Positions 41,873 to 63,092 are shown, counted from the stretch's first letter. The stretch: DNA of 64,000 bases from Gammaproteobacteria bacterium (GCA_030595795.1 JAUVCH010000004.1:4502-68501); one strand, 5' to 3'. Notes: generated from the sequence alone by a model not told the origin. Program-made: numbers and translations.

Positions 41873-41927
41873 AAGACTAAAGGGGAGGTCGTTTTTATAC
41901 GGCCTTTCCTACGGCCTTTACCGGGTA

Positions 41928-42500
41928 TTAAATTTGGATGAAATCGATGAATTGCTTCAATGCAGAAACGGTTTGGGGTAGTTGTTGCTTTTGAAGATTT
42001 GCTAAAAATTCTTCTTTCCCCATTGGTGGATACTTTAACGCTTCCCTCTGATTTTTTACCGCACTACAGGCTTTACCCGATGACAAGTCAATTTGATAGC
42101 AAATAAAATCGTCGGGGTGTATTACCTCTATTCCAAATTTAGACAAAATATCATCTGGGAAATCTTTTAAATTAAAAGTCACAATCGCATCGGCATTACA
42201 TTTAATAGCAGCTGCTACAACATGACGGTCATCAGGGTCTGGAAGCTCGAAAGTATTAATTAAATCTTCGTATCCCTGAACCTTAGCATCACGGACATTG
42301 GCATCCATCAAGTCGCGTATTCTCTCTAACTTTTCACGTTTAAATTTGTCTTTTCTTAATAATGCATTAATCCATTCTTCATGTATTTGATCTGTCCATT
42401 GGGCCTTAAATAAATCTGTTAATGCTAAACGCATCAACAGATCTCTTAACGGCGCAGGATATAAAACACAAGCATCATAGACAACAGAGAATTTTGACAC
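41928..42500 (-). CDS. PIN-domain protein, putative toxin, with about 60 aa of C-terminal extension
   Basis: …VVYDACVLYPAPLRDLLMRL… PIN N-terminal strand with acidic residues; overlaps the upstream HTH gene. Confidence 0.7.
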   Translation of the reverse strand: MSKFSVVYDACVLYPAPLRDLLMRLALTDLFKAQWTDQIHEEWINALLRKDKFKREKLERIRDLMDANVRDAKVQGYEDLINTFELPDPDDRHVVAAAIKCNADAIVTFNLKDFPDDILSKFGIEVIHPDDFICYQIDLSSGKACSAVKNQREALKYPPMGKEEFLANLQKQQLPQTVSALKQFIDFIQI

Positions 42501-42973
42501 TACTCATATCCCATGCCTAGTTTTTGGGACTCTACGGCGAGCTGATCTAATGTTGCCATTCTTTCAGTGTCTATTCGTTGTTTATAGTCAAAAACATTTT
42601 TAGCGAGTACCCTGCGGTGCGTGCCGACCTTGTGAAAATCTATTTCGCCTTTTTCAAGCAATCCAACAAGAAAAGGCCTACTAACATTTAAAATATTCGC
42701 AGCATCCTGAGTGCTCAATTCTGCATGTATAGGCATTATGCCTATGGCATTGCCTCGAGACATTTCTGATAAAACATCTAAGAGAAGTTGCAAAGCATGG
42801 CCTGGTAAAACTAATTCATCACTCTGATCATTACTTCCTTTAATACTTAAATGAACCCGATCTGCGTCAGCGTACTTTGATAAAGTCCTGCTTGAAAGCT
42901 TCGCCTCTTCTATCTCCTGGGCAGTTGGTATTTGAACAACGTTATTTGAAGATGACATGACTATTCCCCACAT
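42500..42973 (-). CDS. Excisionase/MerR-like HTH DNA-binding protein, putative antitoxin partner
   Basis: C-terminal helix-turn-helix (…LSTQDAANILNVSRPFLVGLLEKGEIDFHKVGTHRRV…); its stop and the PIN gene start share coordinate 42500. Confidence 0.65.
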   Translation of the reverse strand: MWGIVMSSSNNVVQIPTAQEIEEAKLSSRTLSKYADADRVHLSIKGSNDQSDELVLPGHALQLLLDVLSEMSRGNAIGIMPIHAELSTQDAANILNVSRPFLVGLLEKGEIDFHKVGTHRRVLAKNVFDYKQRIDTERMATLDQLAVESQKLGMGYE

Positions 42974-43047
42974 AAAATAGTAAATTTAAATTCTGTACAG
43001 AGAGCTTAGCATAAACGAAATAAACGAAACAGGGGTAGAGAAGGCAC

Positions 43048-43194
43048 CATCATTCGCTTCTTCAATGAACTGGAGATCGGCACCGTGGATATCTGGGAAG
43101 CACGTGGCTATTGCATCGAAATGTCACCGTTTGGTGGCATTAAGGGTTCTGGTCTTGGTTGTAAGGAAGGGGTTATTGAGGTTATGAATAGTTA
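43048..43194 (+). pseudogene. Diverged duplicate of the 3' end of phnY (last ~48 codons, ending MNS*)
   Basis: About 80% nucleotide identity to 41700-41846. It translates to …[47 protein letters not shown], against phnY …[48 protein letters not shown]…. Confidence 0.65.
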
Positions 43195-43231
43195 AATGCA
43201 TATTCTAGCGATCGTGAACACCTGATTTTCC

Positions 43232-43352
43232 ACGCATTGGGCTGATCGGCCAGTAAATCGTTGGGAAACTCGATATCGGCCTTATCAACTTCATCGATGA
43301 GTAAAATAACCTGTTCGTCCGATTCAAAGGCCTCCCACACCTTTCCCGACCC
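43232..43352 (-). pseudogene. Fragment resembling an AAA_5 (MoxR/CbbQ-like) ATPase Walker-B segment, with no start codon
   Basis: The reverse-strand translation reads …VILLIDEVDKADIEFPNDLL…, flanked by stops and lacking an initiator. Confidence 0.3.
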
Positions 43353-43425
43353 CTCAACCTAACCTTCTCCCCACGGGAGAAGGAAATTACGAGCGAAATT
43401 CGTTAATTAACGCTACAAGGCTAGA

Positions 43426-47688: not shown

Positions 47689-47829
47689 GGGCGGGGTCAT
47701 TGGAATATGGGCTTGCGTAAGCCTCTTCTAATAGTTGTTTTAGCGAGGCTTTGATGCTCCTTTTTTTACTTGCCATTGTATATACATTGTATATACTTAA
47801 ATGTATTCAATGTAGATCCGGTGATTGCG

Positions 47830-48096
47830 ATGCGAGTAAATAGTGAAATTAGTCAGTGGGGTAACGGTTTGGCTGTAAGGTTGAACCGATCGGTTATTGA
47901 CGCCGCCAACCTAACTAAAGGCTGTAAAGTGCAGATTGAGGTAGATAAAACAGGGGTTCATATTAGTCCGGTTAAGGCAAAGAAAACAAGGTTACGGCTC
48001 CCGCTCAGTGAGGCTTCATTGCTTGCTAAGATAACGCCTGAGCTGGCTCATGCTGACGAACTGGCCCAGCCTTTATCTGACGAAGTGGGCGACTAA
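47830..48096 (+). CDS. MazE/AbrB-family antitoxin
   Basis: MRVNSEISQWGNGLAVRL… swapped-hairpin fold N-terminus. The track ORF begins at 47770, but the internal Met is more likely. Confidence 0.7.
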   Translation: MRVNSEISQWGNGLAVRLNRSVIDAANLTKGCKVQIEVDKTGVHISPVKAKKTRLRLPLSEASLLAKITPELAHADELAQPLSDEVGD

Positions 48097-48461
48097 TGGC
48101 GTCAAAATATATCCCTGAGCGTAAGGATATTATCATGCTTGATTTTGAACCTACTAAAGGGAAAGAAATCGGTAAGTATCGTCCGGCTATAGTGTTGAGC
48201 AGTAAGTTCTACAACAAAAAAACAGGATTACTTATATGTTGCCCGATAAGCACTAGCATACGCGGAGGATCTACCGAAGTTCCGGTAAATAACATCGATC
48301 ATCCTTCCGTTGTTGCGGCAAGCCTGGTGCAAACCTTTTCCTGGGGTGCCAGAAAAGCCAAGAAGATAGCAATTGCTGAAGAGGGTGTTTTTGAAGCAGT
48401 ACTTTTACGCCTTCTCCCGTTGCTAGGCACGGAAGAAATATTAGACGAGTTAACTGAATAA
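48096..48461 (+). CDS. MazF/PemK-family endoribonuclease toxin
   Basis: …KYRPAIVLSS…LLICCPISTS… PemK core; ATGGCG overlaps the antitoxin stop. Confidence 0.8.
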   Translation: MASKYIPERKDIIMLDFEPTKGKEIGKYRPAIVLSSKFYNKKTGLLICCPISTSIRGGSTEVPVNNIDHPSVVAASLVQTFSWGARKAKKIAIAEEGVFEAVLLRLLPLLGTEEILDELTE

Positions 48462-48496
48462 GGACGTATTCTTTATGGAAAAAATCACAATGTATT

Positions 48497-48856
48497 CTAG
48501 GGGCACGTTTTGTTTTCTTCCTGCAGGTTTTCCCCACGCCGGGCAGGTGTGACCAGGGTTCTGTGTTTGCTATTTGGGGCGAATACGTCGTGAAAACGCG
48601 TCAGATTGACTCGCGGTTTCGGTACCAGTGAGGCCAGTTTCGATATGAAATCCAGCGGCTCAAAGATCACATGGGTCGTGCCGTCTCTGTAGGGTGTTTT
48701 GAGCTGGTAGCGGATGTTGCCTGCTGATGTTAACGAAAGTCGTTTTTCCGATATGGAAGGGCGTGATATGTAACGGCACAACCTTTCCAGTTTGTCGCGC
48801 TCCCAAGCCTGAGCGGGAGGTGTAGTGGCTTGAATTGGGCAATTTTGGTTACTCAT
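48497..48856 (-). mobile_element. C-terminal fragment of an IS91/ISCR-family (Y2 HUH) transposase; remnant
   Basis: …LCRYISRPSISEKRL…IRYQLKTPYRDGTTHVIFEPLDFISKLASLVPKPRVNLTRFHDVFAPNSK… parallels the conserved C-terminal block of ISCR/IS91 transposases (…ARYLSRPPLSNERL…VRFE.KDY…F…L…V.P……IRHYGLLAN…). Only about 119 aa remain; the catalytic core is absent. Confidence 0.5.
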
Positions 48857-49332
48857 ACTTTGTATATGCAGATGCGGTAATGCTTATCAAATTCTATTAA
48901 TAAGTAAATCATTATATAACAATATAATGATAATTTAAATATATTCAACTGACAGCAAGTGATATCGCAACTTGTCGATATAACATACAGATAACTATGT
49001 AATCGGTTAGTGTCAGTTGATCTCAACGTGGATGCAATTGGCCCTGACCCTGATCGACTTTGTTAGCGAAGGGTATTTGGCTTTACAACAATTTTCAGGT
49101 TTTCACTAACGACTGAAACAAATTGGAGTAATTTAACTAGCTCGAGAACATCTGGCCTAGGGGCTAAAGGAAAGGCGCGACGGCAATTGATGCCGATACT
49201 GTAAAGATGCCGCAAACGCGGATTTCGTGATCAAAGCAGTTCTGGCGGTGCGCGAGACCCTGATCGAGGTGTTCGGGTCGGCTTGATGAAATCTGTTCAC
49301 CTGATGTAGTGCTGGCGTCCACTTCGGGTCAG

Positions 49333-49535
49333 CCCATCAACCGAATGGTCGAGACCTGGCGCACCCATATCAACAACAAAACGGAAAAATCATCATTGAC
49401 GGTTCCCGGTGGTACTTCAATAACCAGTGGCCCGGTCTTTTCTAAATCGAATGCATTGAAGGCATAAACAGTATCGGTGTTAGCGGTAAGAAACAGTGGA
49501 TTTGAAAGTAATGCGTCTAAATAATGCTTTAAAAA
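49333..49535 (-). pseudogene. Fragment of a DUF1254-family gene, with no start
   Basis: The reverse-strand translation …HYLDALLSNPLFLTANTDTVYAFNAFDLEKTGPLVIEVPPGT… matches the DUF1254 core (…PN.DT.Y..A.LDL..GP.VL.VPD…). It lies in a non-coding AT-rich stretch. Confidence 0.3.
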
Positions 49536-49855
49536 TCAATATTCTTAAGCTCTAAAAGTAAACCCTACAAAAACCTTACAAATCCAGTTATATTTAAGTA
49601 CTTACAGTTACTAGGATTTGGCATAGCTAAACAGACTGAGCGCGTAAATATAACAGATGATTTACACATCAATAAGCAGGCTGATTCTAAGCGTTGGCTA
49701 GCTAAGTTTAAAATAGGCAAAACGTGGCTAACTAAGACCACTAAAGACAAGTTGAATTAATCAGATCCTTGTAGTCTGTCGCCTCTTATTGGATGGACTT
49801 CCCAGACTTAAAGTGTTTGAGACATTAATTTCATAGATAAAATCCGTCTGTTCAA

Positions 49856-50869
49856 TTAGTTAAGATGTCGTTCGAACTCACTGGTATGCATCGCCTCAAA
49901 ACCATTGTTGGATTTCACTAAAAGATAAACAGGTATTTTATTTTGTTTGGCGAATAACATCGTTTTTTCCTTCCCCATCACCATAAAGGCAGTTGCAAAG
50001 GCATCGGCCAGCATTGTCTGTTGATGGAGTACTGTTACAGAAACCAATTGATGAGTAATAGGTCTCCCAGTAGTGGGATCAATTGTATGAGAAAACCTTA
50101 CTTCGTTTTTTTCAAAATAATTTCGATAGTCGCCGGAGGTTGCGACCCCAAGCCCTAGTGGTGAAAAAACCTTATGAATCTGACTCTGCTTTTCTACCGG
50201 CGCTTCGATGGCTAGTCGCCAGGGTTTGGAGTCTGGATTCATTCCCTTTGAAGCCGTTTCTCCACCGATTTCAACAAGATAATTTTCGATATCATTAGTT
50301 CTTAATAGTTCAGTGATTTGGTCGACCCCATACCCTTTGGCTATCGCAGAAAGGTTAACGGATATATTTGCGTTTTCTTTTTTTATGCAGGCGATCCCTA
50401 ATGATAGCTTTTCGAACCCGATTTGTTGCAATAAACTCTTTATTTTCCGCTTGTTGGGTACGACATCATTGGTCTGTTTTTTATCGAAACCCCATTCAGA
50501 TATTAACGGTCCCACCGTTACATCAAAATTTCCGCCTGTCAGTCGGCTGACTTCAAGCGAATTTTTGATTACATAAAATGTTTCTGTCGAAACAGGTTGG
50601 CAGTCTAAAGAAGTCGATTGATTGAATCGCGATAATTCCGAATCATCAATATAAGTCGACATAAGTTGGTTGATTCGGTTTAGTTTTTTTTCAATTTTCG
50701 CGTGCAAGTGGTTAGCATTATCTTGACTTGCTTTTAGTGTAATTCGGTAACTAGTGCCCATGGTGAAACCACTGAGATGAAGGTAGTCATCTTCCTTTTC
50801 GCAGCCAGCCATCAGGCATACTGCTAAAGTAGCCACTAACAACCGGTAAATAATATTAAACTGTTCCAA
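49856..50869 (-). CDS. apbE: FAD:protein FMN transferase (ApbE family) lipoprotein
   Basis: Lipobox LMAGC and ApbE motifs: …GFTMGTSYRI…, …DVTVGPLISEWGF…, …AIAKGYGVD…, …GGE…, …TSGDYRNYF…, …HTIDPTTGRP…, …ADAFATA…. Confidence 0.85.
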   Translation of the reverse strand: MEQFNIIYRLLVATLAVCLMAGCEKEDDYLHLSGFTMGTSYRITLKASQDNANHLHAKIEKKLNRINQLMSTYIDDSELSRFNQSTSLDCQPVSTETFYVIKNSLEVSRLTGGNFDVTVGPLISEWGFDKKQTNDVVPNKRKIKSLLQQIGFEKLSLGIACIKKENANISVNLSAIAKGYGVDQITELLRTNDIENYLVEIGGETASKGMNPDSKPWRLAIEAPVEKQSQIHKVFSPLGLGVATSGDYRNYFEKNEVRFSHTIDPTTGRPITHQLVSVTVLHQQTMLADAFATAFMVMGKEKTMLFAKQNKIPVYLLVKSNNGFEAMHTSEFERHLN

Positions 50870-51356
50870 GTGTTTTCCCGTAGATCTGGTCTACTAAATT
50901 TGGTCGGCTAAATTAGGTGATTTACTCACACAAAAGAGGACAGTTCAATAGTCCTCTTTGTATCTAAACAAGCTGCTCTAGAATAAAAAGGGTCAGATCA
51001 CGCTTTCCCCTGCATCTATTAAAAAATTGAATTGCTATATCAAAACCTCTTTCGAGAAAGGCTCATGAATTCGCTTGATAGGCATAACAATAAAATCCAC
51101 AAATATGTTTGGGTGAGTGAGCAACTCTTGTGTTTATAATAGTACGTTATTAGTGGTGATTTAATTTATCATATCGACAAGGAAACAGGGAATAGTTGAC
51201 ACAGATCAACAAGGGGTAATTAAAAATGACTATCGTGAACTCATTAGAGATATTTTAAAAAATACCAAAATTATGTAGTTTTAAATTTTATTTTAGGCCG
51301 CAACTTTGACCCATGTAATTTTAGGGTTTAGTAATTTTTTCTGGAGAACACTTTTA

Positions 51357-54242
51357 ATGAACGACTTCAACACTCGGCTGAGTTCACTATCGAGTAAAGC
51401 TATTATCGCATTACTGAGCGCAGGTCTCATTAGTGGGAACGGCATTGCTCAAGTACCCAATCCCGAACCCACCACTTACACCGATGTGTCAGTTCCTCAG
51501 CTGACAGGCTGGAATGATGCCAATATTGTTACTTTGGATGGCATGACTGGCGCCACGGAAAAGAGCCACATCTATGAATCTGCTGCGGCTATAGTCGACC
51601 CTACCAAGAGTAGTGTAGCGGCTGTATTCTGGGAATTGGACAATGGCAGTGGTCGTGCACCGGGTATACAGGTTGTCACCGACGACTTTGATGTCCCGAC
51701 TAACAACTGCATCATGGCCTCAGGCGAGCTTGAAAGTGTTGATTTCCCTGGCACCATCGTGCCCAAAACCTGTAGTGACCCACAGGGCAGCTCCAAGCGT
51801 TATTTTCTTGAGATGACCTCGAGTGACGTACCGATAGACATGGCGTTTGATCTCGGCGTCAAGGATATCCGCTACAAGGGTGTCAAGGATCCTGAAACCG
51901 ATGGTGGTGAGGCGCTGGCTGAGTTTAAAGCGACTTACGGCATCGGGCGTATCTATCGCGTGATCCAGAAGGTCATCAATAACACAGAGAAGCGTATTGC
52001 CAGCTACAAGTTTGAGCTGGGTACCGGTCTGGGAGATGCATTCCTGCCGCTGACTTTTGAGGAGCATGGTGTTGGCTTCGAGATGCTTCCTTTGGTGCCA
52101 CGCGAGTTCCTTGAGGGAGAAACCGGCGCGCCTGATATCGCTGTATGGGACTCACTACGCTTTGCGACGGTCTCGCCAAAAATGTTTGACGATGGATCCC
52201 GTGCACGATTTGATCCTGGATTTCTGGATCACAATGCTGCGGGCTTTCTGCCCCCACAGCTTCCAGCTGTTGGCGTCGAAAAGAGCCAGTATATCGACAG
52301 TGGCACGAGTATTGTCGACGGTATAATTGGCTCTATGACCCCCAATTATTTTAATATCGCCGATACTCAAGGTGTCTTACTGCCTGGTAACATACTGGGT
52401 TACCAGCTTTCCGATTCGCTGATACCGGAAGTCATTGGTGAATACAATACCAATGAGATTGGTGGCGAGTCAGATTCGATCGTTGCCATATGGGACGGTT
52501 CCGACTGGCGCTCTGGACGCGCTGGACTTGATGGATTACCTGGACTTGACGATCTCGACCCTGATGCGGCAGATAATTATGGAATTATTCCAGACGCTCA
52601 ATTAATACAATGGGCAGCCAAGCCGCTTGGTCTGGATCTTGATACCGATGACGAGACAGACCCAGACTTCGTTCGTTATGAGGTTATATTGAGTGATGAC
52701 CTATCTGGCCTGAATACCGATTTTTTCATCTATATCGGCGACAAGTTGCTGGATGATACCGGTGAGCTGATACTGGACTCTATCACTTTGCGTCTCACAG
52801 CAAATTCTGTTGAAGCGGTTATTGGTGATGTGCCCGGTAGCGAAGATCCGCCCTGGGGAAGTGATTTAGATGCTAGCAGAATAGACGCACCGACACTGGC
52901 CAGCTATATGCCGGTTACAGGCACGCCGATTGCCATCAACGACATTACTACCACTGTGGAAGATGACCCGTCTACCACTATTACTATTGATGTCCTGGAG
53001 AATGACCTGCTGGATGGTGCGGCAGTAGTTCCAGCCGACGGGTTTATTACGATTACAACACCTCCCGAAGACGGCATTGCTACTATCGTTGGCAATGAGA
53101 TCGAATACACTCCGGATGCAGATTTCGTCGGTACCGATTTCATTAGCTATACTTATACGCTAACCGCGGGTGCGGTCGTCTCCAATATCGCAACCATCAA
53201 GATAATTGTGGAGGCGGCACCGATACCGGATCAACCGTTGGCCGTTAACGACTCCGCTACTACGTTCAAAGACATACCGGTAACCCTCGATGTGCTGGTC
53301 AATGATGAACTGTACAACGATGCCCCCAACACAGTGGTGGTCAGCATCAATAATGATGCCCTGAACGGTGTTGCAAGTGTGGCGGGCGACAACACCATCG
53401 TCTATACCCCGGGTGCAGACTTTGTTGGTTTCGAACGCTTCACCTACGTTGTAACAGTGGATGGCATAGTTTCGAACTCTGCTCTGGTCACGATTAAAGT
53501 TGATTCTTTTGGTATTCCGGATGCAATCAACGACATTACTGTCACCCTTGAAAATGACCCGGTTACCATTGATGTCCTGGAGAATGACGTGCTGGAAGGT
53601 GTGCCAGTAATTCCAGCAGACGGGTTTATTACCATTACAAAAGCTCCCCAAAACGGCAGTGCTGCTGTCGTTGACCAAAAGGTCGAATACACTCCGGATG
53701 CGGGTTTTACCGGTACCGACTTAATTAGCTATACGTATACACTAACGGCGACTGGAGATGTATCCAATACCGCAATCGTCACAATCATTGTGGATGCGGC
53801 ACCGATACCGGATCAACCGTTGGCAATTAACGACTCTACCACTACGTTCAAGAACACAGCGGTAACACTCGATGTGCTGGACAATGATGAACTGAACAAC
53901 GATGCCCCCAGCACAGTGGTGGTCAGCATTAATAATGCCGCCCTGAACGGTGTTGCACGCGTGGAGGATGACAACACTATTATCTATACCCCGGGAATAG
54001 AATTTGTTGGTATCGAACGCTTCACCTACGTTGTAACAGTAGATGGCATAATTTCGAGCTCTGCGCTGGTCACGATCAGAGTTGATGAGCCTGTTGTTGT
54101 GGTACCGGTTGCTACTGGTGGTAGTGGTAGATGTTCGCTCTCCTACAATCCGGACGGTAAAATCGATCCCCTGCTGCCCGGTATAGTCCTTGTCAGTCTG
54201 ATTTACCTGGGATGGAGATCAAGGAAAAATGATGCCAGGTGA
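51357..54242 (+). CDS. Large secreted cadherin-like/Ig-like tandem-repeat surface protein with an N-terminal FMN-attachment-type motif (DGMTGAT) and a C-terminal sorting-signal-like tail
   Basis: I take the start as the internal ATG at 51357 (SD GGAG, then a Sec signal …IIALLSAGLISGNGIAQ); the track ORF runs from 51306. Four C-terminal ~100-aa repeats show the …DVLxNDxxxG…YTPxxxFxGxDxFTYxV… pattern. The tail reads …TGGSGRCSLSYNPDGKIDPLLPGIVLVSLIYLGWRSRKNDAR. Confidence 0.8.
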   Translation: MNDFNTRLSSLSSKAIIALLSAGLISGNGIAQVPNPEPTTYTDVSVPQLTGWNDANIVTLDGMTGATEKSHIYESAAAIVDPTKSSVAAVFWELDNGSGRAPGIQVVTDDFDVPTNNCIMASGELESVDFPGTIVPKTCSDPQGSSKRYFLEMTSSDVPIDMAFDLGVKDIRYKGVKDPETDGGEALAEFKATYGIGRIYRVIQKVINNTEKRIASYKFELGTGLGDAFLPLTFEEHGVGFEMLPLVPREFLEGETGAPDIAVWDSLRFATVSPKMFDDGSRARFDPGFLDHNAAGFLPPQLPAVGVEKSQYIDSGTSIVDGIIGSMTPNYFNIADTQGVLLPGNILGYQLSDSLIPEVIGEYNTNEIGGESDSIVAIWDGSDWRSGRAGLDGLPGLDDLDPDAADNYGIIPDAQLIQWAAKPLGLDLDTDDETDPDFVRYEVILSDDLSGLNTDFFIYIGDKLLDDTGELILDSITLRLTANSVEAVIGDVPGSEDPPWGSDLDASRIDAPTLASYMPVTGTPIAINDITTTVEDDPSTTITIDVLENDLLDGAAVVPADGFITITTPPEDGIATIVGNEIEYTPDADFVGTDFISYTYTLTAGAVVSNIATIKIIVEAAPIPDQPLAVNDSATTFKDIPVTLDVLVNDELYNDAPNTVVVSINNDALNGVASVAGDNTIVYTPGADFVGFERFTYVVTVDGIVSNSALVTIKVDSFGIPDAINDITVTLENDPVTIDVLENDVLEGVPVIPADGFITITKAPQNGSAAVVDQKVEYTPDAGFTGTDLISYTYTLTATGDVSNTAIVTIIVDAAPIPDQPLAINDSTTTFKNTAVTLDVLDNDELNNDAPSTVVVSINNAALNGVARVEDDNTIIYTPGIEFVGIERFTYVVTVDGIISSSALVTIRVDEPVVVVPVATGGSGRCSLSYNPDGKIDPLLPGIVLVSLIYLGWRSRKNDAR
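52920..54100 (+). repeat. Intragenic tandem (A-B)x2 duplication of two ~300-bp units encoding cadherin-like domains
   Basis: A1 (~52920-53215), B1 (~53215-53515), A2 (~53515-53800) and B2 (~53800-54100). Identical stretches such as gcggcaccgataccggatcaaccgttggc appear at ~53213 and ~53799. Confidence 0.8.
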
Positions 54243-54265
54243 GTAAACACTAATAGTTCAATGTT

Positions 54266-54299
54266 AAAAACCCCTCTCTTGTCGAGGGGTTTTTGTTTT
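54266..54299 (+). terminator. Rho-independent terminator between the repeat protein and the CPBP protease gene
   Basis: AAAAA-CCCCTC-tcttgtc-GAGGGG-TTTTTGTTTT. Confidence 0.65.
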
Positions 54300-54306
54300 A
54301 ATAAGC

Positions 54307-54858
54307 ATGATGACGAAACAATTTGAGCCTAACAAGCATGTCTGCGGCCCATTCCAGAGACTCTTCGTAATGAACTTGCTGCGCGAAATCGGTTTAAAAC
54401 ACAAAGCAGGGTGTTATTTCAATTACCGTTTTGTGCTGACAATCCTGGCAGGCATATTAGCAGTCTGGGTGATACATGGTTGGGTGCAGCCTTACCCATC
54501 ACATGTTGAATTTAACTGGCTGCAGTTACTATCGCTGATTGTCTGGCAGCCGCTGCTTGAAGAAGTGCTGTTTCGCGGCATTATTCAAGGACAGCTTGCC
54601 AAATATGAATGGGGTAAACGCTCGCGGTTGAATATCAGCAGTGCTAATGCCGCAACGTCAGTATTGTTTGTTGCGATGCATATGGTTAACACTTTGCCAT
54701 TGTATGCACTGACTATATTTGCACCTTCGCTGGTTTTAGGTTATTTCCGTGACTACTGCGACAGTATTTACCCATGTATTGTTATTCATGGCACCTTCAA
54801 TGCGATGATTTTTGCGGGATTAATTTTAAACGGCAATATGAATTTACCAACAATGTGA
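54307..54858 (+). CDS. CPBP-family (CAAX protease-like) intramembrane glutamic/metallo-protease
   Basis: All three CPBP motifs are present: EEVLFRG (EExxxR), FVAMH (FxxxH) and HGTFN (HxxxN), on a multi-TM 183-aa protein. Confidence 0.8.
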   Translation: MMTKQFEPNKHVCGPFQRLFVMNLLREIGLKHKAGCYFNYRFVLTILAGILAVWVIHGWVQPYPSHVEFNWLQLLSLIVWQPLLEEVLFRGIIQGQLAKYEWGKRSRLNISSANAATSVLFVAMHMVNTLPLYALTIFAPSLVLGYFRDYCDSIYPCIVIHGTFNAMIFAGLILNGNMNLPTM

Positions 54859-55171
54859 TATAGGAATTCAAGTCGCGAGACATTGCTTGTATCAGCGTGT
54901 CCGAAATTTCTTTGTAACGTTCTATACTTTTATGCAGATGAGCGCATTTTAGGTAACAGACGGTAACATTGTTAAGTGCTTCCGCCGAGCTACCGTGGGC
55001 TTGCAGGTATAAATCTTCACAGGCTATCAGATCTCCGGGTATTCGAACCAGCTTATGAATTTGCTGTTTGCCATTGGGCAGGGTTTTATAAACTTTGACT
55101 TCACCTGATAACAGAATATACAGGTGCTTACTGGTGTCACCCTCCTTGTATAGAGTGTAAACCCACCTGTT
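54797..55171 (-). pseudogene. Truncated Crp/Fnr-type cNMP-binding domain gene fragment (no start, no HTH)
   Basis: Reverse-strand ORF …YKEGDTSKHLYILLSGEVKVYKTLPNGKQQIHKLVRIPGDLIACEDLYLQAHGSSAEALNNVTVCYLK… gives the cNMP-binding beta-barrel motifs. An upstream stop precedes it and it has no initiator. Its 3' end overlaps the CPBP gene. Confidence 0.45.
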
Positions 55172-55352
55172 TTAGTGCCACCCAACAATAGAGTTTTCCT
55201 GTTCATGTTTCAATCGGTATTCGACTGGTGTTAATTTCCCAAGTGACTTGTGGGGTCGACCCAGAGGAGCTATTGAGTACGATGTAAAGATTCTCAGTTT
55301 ACTAATTACTGTATACTGGCATTTCAATGTGATTCTCTAGGGAGAGACTGAA

Positions 55353-56339
55353 ATGACAAGAATCATAAATTGGATTAACAAACTGATCATTGGTGTGTTA
55401 CTCGCCGCCCCAGCATTATCGAATGCCGACCCAATTCACGAAGCAGCAGAAAGTGGTGATGTTGATCAGATTTTGAAACTGCTCGACGGTGGGGCCGACG
55501 TTAACGCTCCAGACCTTGACGGGACACCTCTTCAATGGGCATTATTTTCCAACCAAATAGAAGTTGCTCGACTTCTTCTAAAGCGTGGTGCAAATCCAAA
55601 TGTTAAAGGGTGGGATGGAACGCTACTGGAATCGGCCGCGCTTAACGGTAAAACCGAGATTGCCAAAGTTCTTCTTAAACATGGTGCTAATCCTAATAGC
55701 GGAGATCGCTCCACACCTTTAATCCGGGCCGTGCAAAAGGGAAGTTTAGAAATCATCGCGTTACTTCTCACTCAGGATGCCGATCCTAGCTTGGCCACTC
55801 CTGACGGAACCACTCCCTTACACGAAGCCGCCCATGGAGGTAAATTGGAGATCGCAAAGCGATTAGTTGATAGTGGGGCCGATGTTAACGCACTCAATGG
55901 AATAGGTAGGCCAGCCATCCATTTCGCTGTTGAAAAGAACCACTCCATTTTGGCTGCTTATCTAAAGAAACATGGTGCAACACCAGGTAAGATCGCTTCC
56001 ATTACAGACCTACTCGCCTCCGCTGACGCAGCACAAGGAAAGACGTTAGCCGAGAAGCAGCTTTGTGTTGATTGCCATATCGTGGACAAGTATGGCCCAC
56101 CCTTATGGAATGTAGTGGGCCGTAAAAAGGGTAGTGTCAATGATTATTCTTATTCCCCACCATTTGAGGCTTTAAAGGGCAAATGGTCCTTTGAAGCACT
56201 CAACGTATTCCTGGCTCGTCCTACCGAAGTCGTACCTGGCACAAAGATGAACTTCCGTGGTATTTCGGACCCACAAATGAAAGCTGAGGTAATCGTTTAT
56301 CTACGATCTTTAAGTGACGATCCAGTACCACTTCCGTAG
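55353..56339 (+). CDS. Periplasmic ankyrin-repeat protein fused to a C-terminal class I cytochrome c (c2-like) domain
   Basis: Sec signal (…LLAAPALSNA), about five ANK repeats (…TPL..A…G…V..LL..GA..N…), then CVDCH heme-binding and a …PGTKMNF… Met-ligand motif, with the cytochrome c2 pattern GPPLWNVVGRKKGS…YS…. Confidence 0.8.
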   Translation: MTRIINWINKLIIGVLLAAPALSNADPIHEAAESGDVDQILKLLDGGADVNAPDLDGTPLQWALFSNQIEVARLLLKRGANPNVKGWDGTLLESAALNGKTEIAKVLLKHGANPNSGDRSTPLIRAVQKGSLEIIALLLTQDADPSLATPDGTTPLHEAAHGGKLEIAKRLVDSGADVNALNGIGRPAIHFAVEKNHSILAAYLKKHGATPGKIASITDLLASADAAQGKTLAEKQLCVDCHIVDKYGPPLWNVVGRKKGSVNDYSYSPPFEALKGKWSFEALNVFLARPTEVVPGTKMNFRGISDPQMKAEVIVYLRSLSDDPVPLP

Positions 56340-56472
56340 GGATTTCGAATAATACGAGAGCCCGCAATTTGGCCGAACCCGGCCTAATTGAAAGAATTAT
56401 TGAATGTCGACTACCTGGCCGCTGTCATTAAATTCACAAACCAAAAACCCCGGTCCAACGCCCTCTAACAAG

Positions 56473-56868
56473 TTATTTGGTGGGTAGCCCGGCAGCCAAT
56501 AGTACTTTCATACCGCCGTCGATGTAGGAAACATTAGTGACGCCCATATCGGTGAGTAGGTTTGCCGCGGTTGCTCCACGGTAGCACGGCGACGATCCAC
56601 AGGTCGTTATAATTCGGCGTGCGCGGTCTCGAAGTTCCGGCTCTCGATATTGTTCGTCGAACTCCAGGTCTGCTTTCCAAGCTATCGATCTGCCGGGTGC
56701 ATTGATCGCACGTATACCCAAACCGGTCGCCTGTACTTCAGACTCGTCGCGAACGTCTACCAACAAGGCATTCGAGTCCCGTTCGAGTTCTTGCAAAGTG
56801 TCTTCAGCGCTAATCGTCTAGGCCTGCGCCATGGCCTCATCGGCCAATTGTAAAAATGTCTTAGCCAT
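56473..56868 (-). pseudogene. Rhodanese-domain protein interrupted by an in-frame amber (TAG) codon at codon 17
   Basis: ATG at ~56868 with SD AGAGGAA gives MAKTFLQLADEAMAQA-TAG-TISAEDTLQELERDSNALLVDVRDESE… in one frame. The track ORF restarts at TTG 56796. Confidence 0.55.
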
Positions 56869-56881
56869 TACTAGTTCCTCT

Positions 56882-57079
56882 CTAATTTTTGATTTTGATC
56901 AATGCCTGAATCTGGCCCCTTTCGTCATCGCTCCAGTCCGAAGCATCCTCCCCATGCGCGATCTTGCCGTGGATCTCGAGCAGTTGCCATAGTTCGGCTT
57001 CCGTTTCCGCCTGAAACTTACTAGGACAGGCTTCCATGCCCGGGTATTCACTATATGCATATGAGTACGCAGTCATCAT
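56882..57079 (-). CDS. DUF1059-like small protein (65 aa)
   Basis: Small acidic His-containing ORF with its own SD-like sequence; family assignment is tentative. Confidence 0.45.
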   Translation of the reverse strand: MMTAYSYAYSEYPGMEACPSKFQAETEAELWQLLEIHGKIAHGEDASDWSDDERGQIQALIKIKN

Positions 57080-57583
57080 TATTACCTCCAGGATTTAATT
57101 CGATGAATTTTGCCGCTGTGCGCAAGCATAGGGAGTATAAAAGCCATATCTCTCAATAACAAACTGCGAAATCTAATCCAGCTTCTTTCCTTTTCCGTGT
57201 GATTTACTGAAATGCCTGAAAAATTCGTCCATTTTTCACGCATTAGTTTGATCGCTTTCAACAATTTGTCATCATAAGCACATAGCAACCTGCACCGCCA
57301 ATTGGTGGCAACACTTCAAATCATGAAACGTATTAGGTACTGTGAGTAAAGCGAATGGCAGCTCTTGAGTAATTTCCATTGTTGAAACCTAAACCTTCCT
57401 GCAAATCCTAAAGTATCACAAGACATATTTTTTTTGGCAGAAAGTTGTCAATCCAAAAATGTAAGATAGCGAACCTACGACAAATCTTTTTTTTAGCTGA
57501 AAAATCCAGGTTAGCTTGAGTCAAGACTGCATAAGTTATTGATCTATTAGCATGCGCAATTTAAGCATATTTGTGTGCTGACC

Positions 57584-62090: not shown

Positions 62091-63092
62091 ATGACATCTA
62101 TTGAACTACGCTATCTCAGTGGGCTAGATATTAAAGCACTGGAAATGACCGATAGTGAAATCCTCGCAGCAATCGAAGATAGTCTACGCGCACAGGGAAA
62201 TAACGAAACAGTGATCGAGCCGCGCATGCATTTAATCCCTGATGCCAGCGTCGATGGCCATTTCAACGTGCTACGTGGCTATATCGGCCCGAGTAATGTC
62301 GCCGGGGTGAAGATCGTCGGCGATTATCACAATAACTATCAACAGGGATTGCCATCAGAGTTTGCGCTGTTAAATTTATTCGACGGCAAAACCGGTCAAC
62401 CTAAAGCCATCCTCGACGCAACCGCAATCACCGAAATGCGAACAGGTGCCATCACCGCCCTCGGCGCGAAATATCTGGCACCCTCTAAACCGAAAATACT
62501 GGGCCATATCGGCGCCCGTGGCACTGCTTACTGGAATGTGAAACTACTCGATCATCTTTTTGATTTTGAGGAAATCCGCATCCACTCACGACGTCCAGAA
62601 AGCCGCGATGCTTTTGCGAAACAACTCGAAAAAGATCTCGGCAAACCCATCAGGGTTACCGATAACTGGCAGGATTGCCTCGATGGCGCCGATATCCTCG
62701 TCGAAGCATCGAGATTAACCGAACCCACCCCTTTGTTTAAATCCAGCTGGATCAAACCCGGTACATTGGTAATACCCTACGGTACCATGAGCACTGTAGA
62801 AGACGATATTATCGAACACATGGACAAGATCGTTGTCGATGACTGGGGCCAATGTCTGATCGGGCCTTTCGGGTGTCTGCGCCGACATGTTGATTCAGGA
62901 CAGATCACTCAGCAAAGTATCCATGGTGAACTCGGCGAAATTGTAGCAGGTAGAAAACCAGGCCGCGAAAACCATGATGAAACCTGTTTGTTCTGGCATC
63001 GCGGTTTATCCACCTCAGATATAGCCCTTGGTGCGGCGATGCTGGAAAAAGCCGATCGGCTTGGTATTGGCCACCGGTTACCTTACGCATGA
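62091..63092 (+). CDS. Ornithine cyclodeaminase/mu-crystallin family protein
   Basis: OCD-family Rossmann region (…ILGHIGARGTAYWN…) at about 333 aa. Confidence 0.8.
   Translation: MTSIELRYLSGLDIKALEMTDSEILAAIEDSLRAQGNNETVIEPRMHLIPDASVDGHFNVLRGYIGPSNVAGVKIVGDYHNNYQQGLPSEFALLNLFDGKTGQPKAILDATAITEMRTGAITALGAKYLAPSKPKILGHIGARGTAYWNVKLLDHLFDFEEIRIHSRRPESRDAFAKQLEKDLGKPIRVTDNWQDCLDGADILVEASRLTEPTPLFKSSWIKPGTLVIPYGTMSTVEDDIIEHMDKIVVDDWGQCLIGPFGCLRRHVDSGQITQQSIHGELGEIVAGRKPGRENHDETCLFWHRGLSTSDIALGAAMLEKADRLGIGHRLPYA

Follow-up and report, generated by a model that had tools for sequence, protein, structure and literature searches.

We describe here a gene that fuses a module of ankyrin repeats to a class I, respiratory-type cytochrome c. 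It was found in a 64,000-nucleotide stretch of DNA from a gammaproteobacterium (GCA_030595795.1 JAUVCH010000004.1:4502-68501; this whole stretch is referred to as the window), where it occupies positions 55353..56339 (+). The encoded protein of 328 amino acids (aa), called ANK-cytochrome c below, comprises a signal-peptide-like N-terminus (residues 1–25), a solenoid of six ankyrin repeats (residues 26–212), a short conserved linker (residues 213–225), and a mono-heme cytochrome c domain (residues 226–328). The fusion is a conserved and widespread family, already present in databases under generic names, and the window gene is one of its members; we found no earlier description of this architecture, in which an ankyrin module is appended to a respiratory-type cytochrome c of class I. 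In its own genome the gene forms an accessory unit by itself, acquired by horizontal transfer and located on an island of 9.9 kb. As to function, we give about an even chance to the reading that the protein is a soluble periplasmic electron carrier, docked on a partner via its ankyrin domain.

The gene and its N-terminal signal

The start codon is the first one past an in-frame stop codon. A Shine–Dalgarno-like GGGAGAG (55340..55346, +), read from the sequence, precedes it, with the GGAG core (55341-55344) 8 nt 5' of the ATG. The GC content of the gene, 0.473, compares with 0.483 for the whole window, and its GC content at third codon positions is low, 0.40 versus 0.52–0.61 in housekeeping genes. 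A preliminary description of this region had placed a signal, ankyrin repeats, and a cytochrome c in a single open reading frame (ORF); the coordinates and both domains are borne out. This is the only ORF of at least 120 aa with a CXXCH motif in the 64-kb window.

Residues 1–25 (MTRIINWINKLIIGVLLAAPALSNA; 55353..55427, +) resemble a signal peptide by their hydrophobicity profile, by the residues at −3/−1, and by the N-termini of homologues. Arg3 and Lys10 are followed by a 12-residue hydrophobic core (LIIGVLLAAPAL) and then by S-N-A ahead of Asp26; homologues retain a small-x-small site immediately ahead of repeat 1. In the AlphaFold model residues 4–17 form a low-confidence helix and residues 18–24 are disordered. 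The protein would thus be exported via Sec and cleaved by signal peptidase I after Ala25 (S-N-A), in agreement with the Sec signal named in the preliminary description; a hydrophobic core as short as 12 residues, with S-N-A right behind it, suggests a cleavable signal and not an anchor.

Ankyrin domain

The ankyrin solenoid (residues 26–212; 55428..55988, +) is supported by Pfam, by PDB matches, by AlphaFold helices, and by an alignment of 36 family members. The Pfam models Ank (PF00023; E=5.5e-37, 124 bits against a cut-off of 21.1, in five stretches) and Ank_2 (PF12796; E=3.9e-34, 117.5 bits against a cut-off of 27.3) match, as do Ank_4 and others. Sequence matches in PDB, down to E=2e-92, are to ankyrin-1 and designed ankyrin repeat proteins (DARPins), while a Foldseek search against PDB recovers DARPins and AnkB with a target template modeling score (TM-score) of up to 0.81. 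The AlphaFold model has 12 helices over residues 27–206, i.e., six helix-pair repeats, caps counted, with the boundaries 26–55, 56–87, 88–118, 119–150, 151–183, and 184–212. Of the earlier statement that there are about five ankyrin repeats, the ankyrin identity stands, and the Pfam result answers the concern that the repeats might be of another kind; their number, judged by the AlphaFold helix pairs, is corrected to six. Across the family the domain is acidic, its net charge ranging from −21 to +1 and being negative in 34 of 36 members.

Linker and cytochrome c domain

The inter-domain linker (residues 213–225, KIASITDLLASAD; 55989..56027, +) is conserved in the 36-member alignment and in alignments with cytochrome c552 and with P0085, a cytochrome-only relative considered below. 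Its signature, PIxxLLASAD, is also found in membrane-anchored cytochromes c.

The C-terminal part of the protein (residues 226–328; 56028..56336, +) is a class I mono-heme cytochrome c domain of the c2/c552/cy type, as follows from Pfam, from PDB matches, and from identity to P0085. In the whole protein the Pfam Cytochrom_C model (PF00034) matches residues 226–320 marginally, with 22.6 bits against a gathering cut-off of 21.3; hence, the C-terminal 117 aa alone were searched against all PDB sequences. Matches were obtained to Paracoccus c552 (3m97, E=4.5e-16), to Rhodobacter capsulatus cytochrome cy (6xkw, E=1.7e-13), and also to cytochrome c2 (1hro) and to Crithidia and other mitochondrial cytochromes c, the alignments spanning the N-terminal helix, the CxxCH and GTKM motifs, and the C-terminal helix. 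In the NCBIfam collection, cytochrome c-550 (CycA, NF043008) scores 45.1 bits and does not reach its cut-off of 240.

The protein has two cysteines only, both in its sole CXXCH, the heme attachment motif C238-V-D-C241-H242 (56064..56078, +). Met299 (56247..56249, +), which lies in PGTKMNF and is invariant in the 36 sequences, is the predicted sixth heme ligand; it aligns with the GTKM of c552 and of the mitochondrial cytochrome c of Crithidia fasciculata. The CXXCH is near the N-terminus of the domain and the Met ligand about 60 residues past it, as class I cytochrome c requires. From this arrangement we infer a heme covalently bound at Cys238/Cys241, with His242 and Met299 as axial ligands. 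The AlphaFold model has helices at residues 226–235, 238–244, 280–288, and 307–319, with a predicted local distance difference test score (pLDDT) of 79–96, in a typical class I fold, and the domain ends in a conserved tail, YLRSLSDDPVPLP. Pfam, PDB, and AlphaFold therefore agree with the mono-heme class I cytochrome c that the preliminary description had read from CVDCH and PGTKMNF; given the PDB alignments and the modeled cytochrome c fold, the CXXCH is not an isolated motif.

Relation to membrane-anchored cytochromes and domain arrangement

In the best cytochrome-only relatives (P0085, P0086, and P0106), a transmembrane helix at the N-terminus is combined with Ala/Pro-rich linkers and a tandem of two cytochrome c domains. 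Each of these domains opens with LLASAD..G and closes with YLRxLSDxPxPLP, same as in the window protein. In BLASTP comparisons the heme domain aligns over its full length with either domain of P0085, at 44–46% identity (E=1e-33). Because of this identity, and of the PDB matches to c552 and cy, we place the heme domain among tethered carriers, in the same subfamily, by sequence, as the membrane-anchored cy, c552, and tandem cytochromes. Anchored cytochromes c stay attached to the membrane as they shuttle electrons from the bc1 complex to terminal oxidases. Cytochrome cy is such a membrane-anchored carrier in the bc1–cbb3 supercomplex, for which c2 is described too (PMC7876108).

When the window protein is judged from its sequence as a possible anchored cytochrome c, the heme-domain homology is present, whereas the transmembrane anchor and the flexible linker are absent; in the alignments, the ankyrin solenoid takes their place. 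Thus, ANK-cytochrome c shares with cytochrome cy, c552, and the P0085 type the heme subfamily and the position of the carrier domain C-terminal to an N-terminal tethering element, but has a signal of the cleavable type and a rigid five- or six-repeat ankyrin domain, with no transmembrane anchor or Ala/Pro-rich linker. Soluble cytochromes c2/c550 (CycA) and mitochondrial cytochrome c have the class I fold, CXXCH, PGTKM, and the Trp/Arg framework in common with it; unlike the fusion, they are single domains of about 100–130 residues. In CcoP of the cbb3 oxidase and in the engineered CcoP–cy fusion (6xkx), a cytochrome c domain is also fused covalently (PMC7876108); however, fusions of the CcoP type hold the cytochrome c by its partner covalently, while ANK-cytochrome c is fused to a generic protein-binding scaffold instead of to a redox partner, and the tethering, if any, would be non-covalent. 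AnkB of Pseudomonas and Xanthomonas and Cj1386 of Campylobacter are likewise exported bacterial ankyrin proteins, and bind a periplasmic heme protein (PMC10294975); they consist of ankyrin repeats only and have a catalase gene adjacent, whereas the family considered here has a cytochrome c domain of its own and no catalase neighbor in any context.

The mutual position of the two domains was assessed with AlphaFold, the model of the window protein being built on 36 homologues and the predicted TM-score (pTM) taken as a proxy for inter-domain arrangement. The six-repeat window protein yields a pTM of 0.84 and a pLDDT of 91.3; a five-repeat homologue from Aminobacter, a pTM of 0.86 and a pLDDT above 91. 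Since these pTM values are well above the approximately 0.55–0.6 that we estimate for two domains of this size (187 and 116 residues) oriented independently of each other, the ankyrin and cytochrome domains are predicted to form one rigid body. As an internal repeat can be lost without a drop in model confidence, the interface is probably made by the C-terminal repeats, with the N-terminal repeats left free. The LSDxPxPLP tail was considered as a fusion-specific clasp on the ankyrin domain; this was dropped, as the ankyrin-free anchored tandem cytochromes carry the same tail on each domain.

The fusion family

In a large protein search, 86 of the 120 best matches (the window protein counted) cover at least 90% of the query at 34–100% identity; without the window protein, about 85 database clusters align over the full length, with identities of 34–85%. 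The homologues are labeled in databases 'ankyrin repeat domain-containing protein', 'c-type cytochrome', or 'cytochrome c'. All named hosts are Alphaproteobacteria (Rhodospirillales, Kiloniellales, Paracoccaceae, Mesorhizobium, Rhizobium sp. Pop5, and Aminobacter); other members come from marine plankton or sediment metagenomes. Short matches are N-terminally truncated fragments that still have both domains. Hence no split between the domains is seen in relatives, and the frameshift that the preliminary description had envisaged as an argument against a true fusion does not occur among them.

Cys241, His242, Met299, Trp278, Arg257, Gly296, Leu283, and Asn284 are invariant in the 36-member alignment, and Cys238 is conserved in at least 90% of the sequences. 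Two length classes are seen, one of about 328 aa with six repeats, to which the window protein belongs, and one of about 297 aa with five, repeat 4 (residues 119–150 of the window protein) being absent; one member has four repeats. The heme motif varies in several members: P0050 has CAGPCH and P0061 CAGGCH (both CX3CH), P0058 has CGRCCH, and P0042 (6 member sequences on 4 contigs) has CVDCQ in place of CVDCH together with an N-terminally shortened ORF, and may be a decaying copy.

For a 179-aa query spanning the domain junction, at least five of the best 150 representatives span the junction as well, the rest being giant ankyrin proteins and tandem cytochromes; as the giant ankyrin proteins rank high there through summed repeat scores, these numbers do not measure the size of the family. 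A scan of a genome collection with the single protein yielded distant ankyrin-only relatives only. No NCBIfam model reaches its cut-off for the window protein or for two homologues; in the Foldseek search against PDB the ankyrin half alone was matched (query TM-score of at most 0.54), with no solved structure that has both domains; and a literature search found no description of an ankyrin–cytochrome c fusion, experimental or bioinformatic.

Gene neighborhood

The gene is a separate unit, set off by a 494-bp upstream spacer, by a terminator-like hairpin after the preceding CPBP gene, and by a convergent downstream gene. Its context was compared at 12 homologue loci (L014–L025), from relatives 34–83% identical, that represent nine independent contexts, each with neighbors unrelated to those of the others. 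DNA homology to the three closest relatives covers the gene with about 40 bp upstream and about 20 bp downstream only. Among the island neighbors of the gene, ApbE, Big_9, CPBP, rhodanese, DUF1059, and MazEF were searched by tblastn and are absent from the 12 homologue loci and from two sister-genome loci. The annotated remainder of the window is housekeeping (hemCDXY, argH, ada, argS, and hrpA), with no partner encoded nearby.

Two neighbors that recur beside homologues on some marine contigs were examined as candidate partners and rejected. A guanylate-cyclase protein with tetratricopeptide repeats (TPR), found near the homologues of L015, L019, and L020, has no export signal and starts at the catalytic domain, and the window has no homologue of it. 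A GFA-family protein occurs near the homologues of L014, L019, L020, and L021; the only GFA-like match in the window, a weak one (E=5e-4), is some 42 kb distant from the gene. Both recur in unrelated contexts, as fits paralog-rich families, and their recurrence is regarded as chance. In one Paracoccaceae lineage, the homologue P0064 (L017 3031..3930 and L018 2997..3896) has a globin gene and a ccoGHIS/ccoP cluster (assembly factors and subunit of the cbb3 oxidase) at a distance of about 2.4 kb; this proximity is limited to that lineage, i.e., to two near-identical contigs.

The island and other insertions in the window

The arginyl-tRNA synthetase encoded in the window is 76–100% identical to proteins labeled 'MAG: Gammaproteobacteria bacterium' or 'Proteobacteria bacterium', which indicates an uncultured gammaproteobacterium as the source, probably a marine one to judge from the metagenomes concerned. 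The gene is located on a strain-specific island of 9,895 bp (47689..57583; blastn breakpoints 47688|57584) that is absent from two sister genomes, L026 (arginyl-tRNA synthetase 91% identical; a 2.57-Mb scaffold) and L027 (96%). In both, the genes for DUF302, M24 peptidase, argS, SPOR, ygjP, and hrpA are contiguous and free of the island, apart from an ABC transporter insertion in L026 that separates argS from the gene for the M24 peptidase. By the junction sequences, the insertion is exactly between the stop codon of SPOR and the convergent stop codon of ygjP. Examination of the junctions yielded no target-site duplications, no inverted or flanking repeats, and no tRNA. The island carries MazE/MazF, a Y2 transposase fragment, ApbE, Big_9, CPBP, a Crp/FNR remnant, ANK-cytochrome c, rhodanese, and DUF1059. 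Its GC content is uneven (ApbE 0.40, CPBP 0.43, Big_9 0.49, rhodanese 0.54), and because of these differences among its genes the island appears to be a mosaic and not a uniformly low-GC block. Thus, where the preliminary description spoke of a low-GC island, the two sister genomes that lack 47689..57583 uphold the island, but the GC content is patchy, from 0.40 to 0.54.

At the left end of the island are a MazE-like/MazF toxin–antitoxin pair (47770..48461) and a 119-aa fragment of a Y2-type transposase (48497..48856, −), past which about 1 kb, to 49855, is non-coding (no ORF of at least 62 aa, GC 0.40). The ApbE lipoprotein gene (49856..50869, −) is divergent from the gene for a 978-aa Big_9/cadherin-like protein (51306..54242, +), which is directly followed by the gene for a CPBP/Rce1-like intramembrane protease (54307..54858). 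The N-terminal part of the Big_9 protein holds TLDGMTGATEKS (DGMTGAT), resembling an ApbE flavinylation site, and its C-terminus, GGSGRCSL...PLLPGIVLVSLIYLGWRSRKNDAR, is sorting-signal-like, with a hydrophobic helix and a basic tail. Big_9 may be a flavinylated surface protein, with CPBP as its processing protease.

Most of the 494-bp spacer upstream of ANK-cytochrome c is taken up by a remnant of a Crp/FNR-family gene (54800..55171, −), recognized in six-frame translation, which overlaps the 3' end of the CPBP gene. It retains the cNMP-binding domain only (Pfam cNMP_binding, E=1.7e-13, 50.7 bits against a cut-off of 27.5), with no promoter, start codon, or helix–turn–helix (HTH) domain. A piece resembling an insertion-sequence transposase, RPHKSLGKLTPVEY, at about 55175..55336 (−), likewise upstream of ANK-cytochrome c, was set aside as not significant (rve_3, E=0.15). 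At the right end, convergent with ANK-cytochrome c, lie a single-domain rhodanese (56473..56796, −) and a DUF1059 protein (56882..57079, −). In the relative at L019 a rhodanese domain is found inside the neighboring cyclase–TPR protein; it has no detectable homology to the window rhodanese.

Other strain differences are seen elsewhere in the window. A second small insertion (41874..43424) is present relative to L027, where the aldehyde dehydrogenase and DUF302 genes adjoin; it holds a PIN-domain and HTH_17 pair (41928..42973, −; GC 0.37–0.41) and a 147-bp stretch (43048..43194) that repeats the 3' end of the aldehyde dehydrogenase gene and is 79% identical to L027 6934..7080. A third strain-specific insertion is the ornithine cyclodeaminase/mu-crystallin gene after hrpA (62091..63092), which is missing from L026 and L027; in both of these an RlmG-type methyltransferase gene directly follows hrpA. 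The lowest GC patch of the window (0.366 over positions 6001-7000; genes at 6129..7342) encodes a protein with a Pesticin/phage-lysozyme-like toxin domain (6129..6686; Pfam E=1e-46), followed by a 219-aa protein with no Pfam match that may be its immunity partner.

Discussion

We propose that ANK-cytochrome c is a docked periplasmic carrier. According to this proposal, the signal peptide would direct export by Sec, and cleavage after Ala25 would release a soluble periplasmic form with one covalent heme at Cys238/Cys241 and with His242 and Met299 as axial ligands. The rigidly attached, acidic six-repeat solenoid would replace the transmembrane anchor and flexible linker of anchored cytochromes, and would dock on a respiratory complex or a periplasmic oxidoreductase, keeping the heme domain at its site of action by a protein tether in place of a lipid one. 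Docking through the ankyrin repeats and the kind of partner are putative elements of this proposal; tethering of a cytochrome to its partner by an ankyrin scaffold is plausible. To our knowledge, every characterized role of ankyrin repeats is to bind another protein. Periplasmic ankyrin proteins that bind heme enzymes provide a precedent, namely the pairs AnkB–KatB, AnkB–CatB, and Cj1386–KatA (PMC10294975; PMC11442138).

Several observations weigh against the proposal. The ankyrin positions conserved in the whole family are mostly framework, with no universal binding face evident. No neighbor of the gene is conserved in the nine independent contexts, and so none can be put forward as a partner. 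The net charge of the cytochrome domain is close to zero across the family (−9 to +5), with no obvious basic docking character, and export, cleavage, and heme attachment are predictions from the amino acid sequence.

The first two of these observations lend some support to the main alternative, in which the ankyrin domain, packed rigidly on the cytochrome, would act intramolecularly, by tuning, shielding, or stabilizing the heme (its potential, access, or stability), or as a solubility or spacer domain, the protein being a freely diffusing carrier or a redox sensor. We consider this alternative unlikely, although not negligible. The pTM values of 0.84 and 0.86, which point to a rigid interface and not to beads on a string, fit it as well. 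However, five to six repeats far exceed what is needed to cap a domain of 100 residues; the dispensability of an internal repeat for model confidence suggests that the N-terminal repeats are outside the interface and free; and the characterized bacterial periplasmic ankyrin proteins bind other proteins (PMC10294975).

Somewhat less probable still is an accessory role in peroxide defense, similar to that of AnkB and Cj1386, with a periplasmic catalase or peroxidase bound by the ankyrin domain, and with a cytochrome domain that would feed electrons (e.g., to cytochrome c peroxidase) or handle heme. The only characterized periplasmic bacterial ankyrin proteins do bind catalases and promote their activity or heme loading (PMC10294975; PMC11442138), yet AnkB-type genes share an operon with the catalase gene (PMC10294975), whereas neither ANK-cytochrome c nor its homologues in nine further contexts have a catalase or peroxidase gene nearby, and the cytochrome domain of ANK-cytochrome c groups with respiratory carriers of the c552/cy type.

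The preliminary description had assigned the gene to an extracytoplasmic redox module together with ApbE, the putatively flavinylated Big_9, and CPBP. All of these are indeed on one 9.9-kb island, the DGMTGAT of Big_9 resembles an ApbE target site, and in related extracytosolic systems flavinylated proteins and cytochromes fill similar electron-transfer roles (PMC8238504). But the 14 related loci are devoid of these neighbors, and the closest relatives cease to be homologous roughly 40 bp from the gene. Between the gene and CPBP stand a terminator-like hairpin and the remains of a regulator gene, and the heterogeneous GC content of the island suggests a mosaic. The lack of co-occurrence largely refutes this assignment, which we now hold to be very improbable; the gene is a unit of its own.

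Bacterial ankyrin repeats are often host-directed, and the strongest NCBIfam matches are Legionella Dot/Icm ankyrin effectors (AnkH, AnkY, AnkX, and others), while the cytochrome domain is of the mitochondrial type; nevertheless, a secreted eukaryote-like effector, with the ankyrin domain targeting a host protein and the cytochrome domain mimicking host cytochrome c, is hardly credible, given that the best of these scores (82 bits against a cut-off of 600) reflects generic ankyrin similarity, that members of the family come from Paracoccaceae, from rhizobia with a free-living habit, and from metagenomes of marine plankton or sediment, that the periplasm is the likely destination of a protein with a Sec signal and no secretion system encoded around it, and that the nearest cytochrome relatives are bacterial membrane-anchored respiratory carriers.

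If ANK-cytochrome c is a docked carrier, a broader generalization can be offered, albeit tentatively and with doubt: ankyrin-tethered cytochromes c might be a third mode of periplasmic delivery, beside the free (c2) and the lipid-anchored (cy/c552) ones, in the form of a mobile single-gene plug-in, docked non-covalently by its groove onto a respiratory complex or periplasmic enzyme and transferable between Alpha- and Gammaproteobacteria.

How periplasmic cytochromes c reach their partners and stay by them, whether by diffusion, anchoring, or fusion, affects respiratory efficiency and supercomplex organization. Homologues are found in sequenced Rhizobium, Mesorhizobium, and Aminobacter, which are possibly cultivable, and hence the question may be directly testable. 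If the proposal is true, a respiratory-type cytochrome c fused to an ankyrin scaffold would add a protein-tether solution to this repertoire, and would be a natural model for engineering docked electron carriers, DARPins being an engineering platform already. For the ankyrin repeats of bacteria, it would mean a second role in the periplasm that is not directed at a host.

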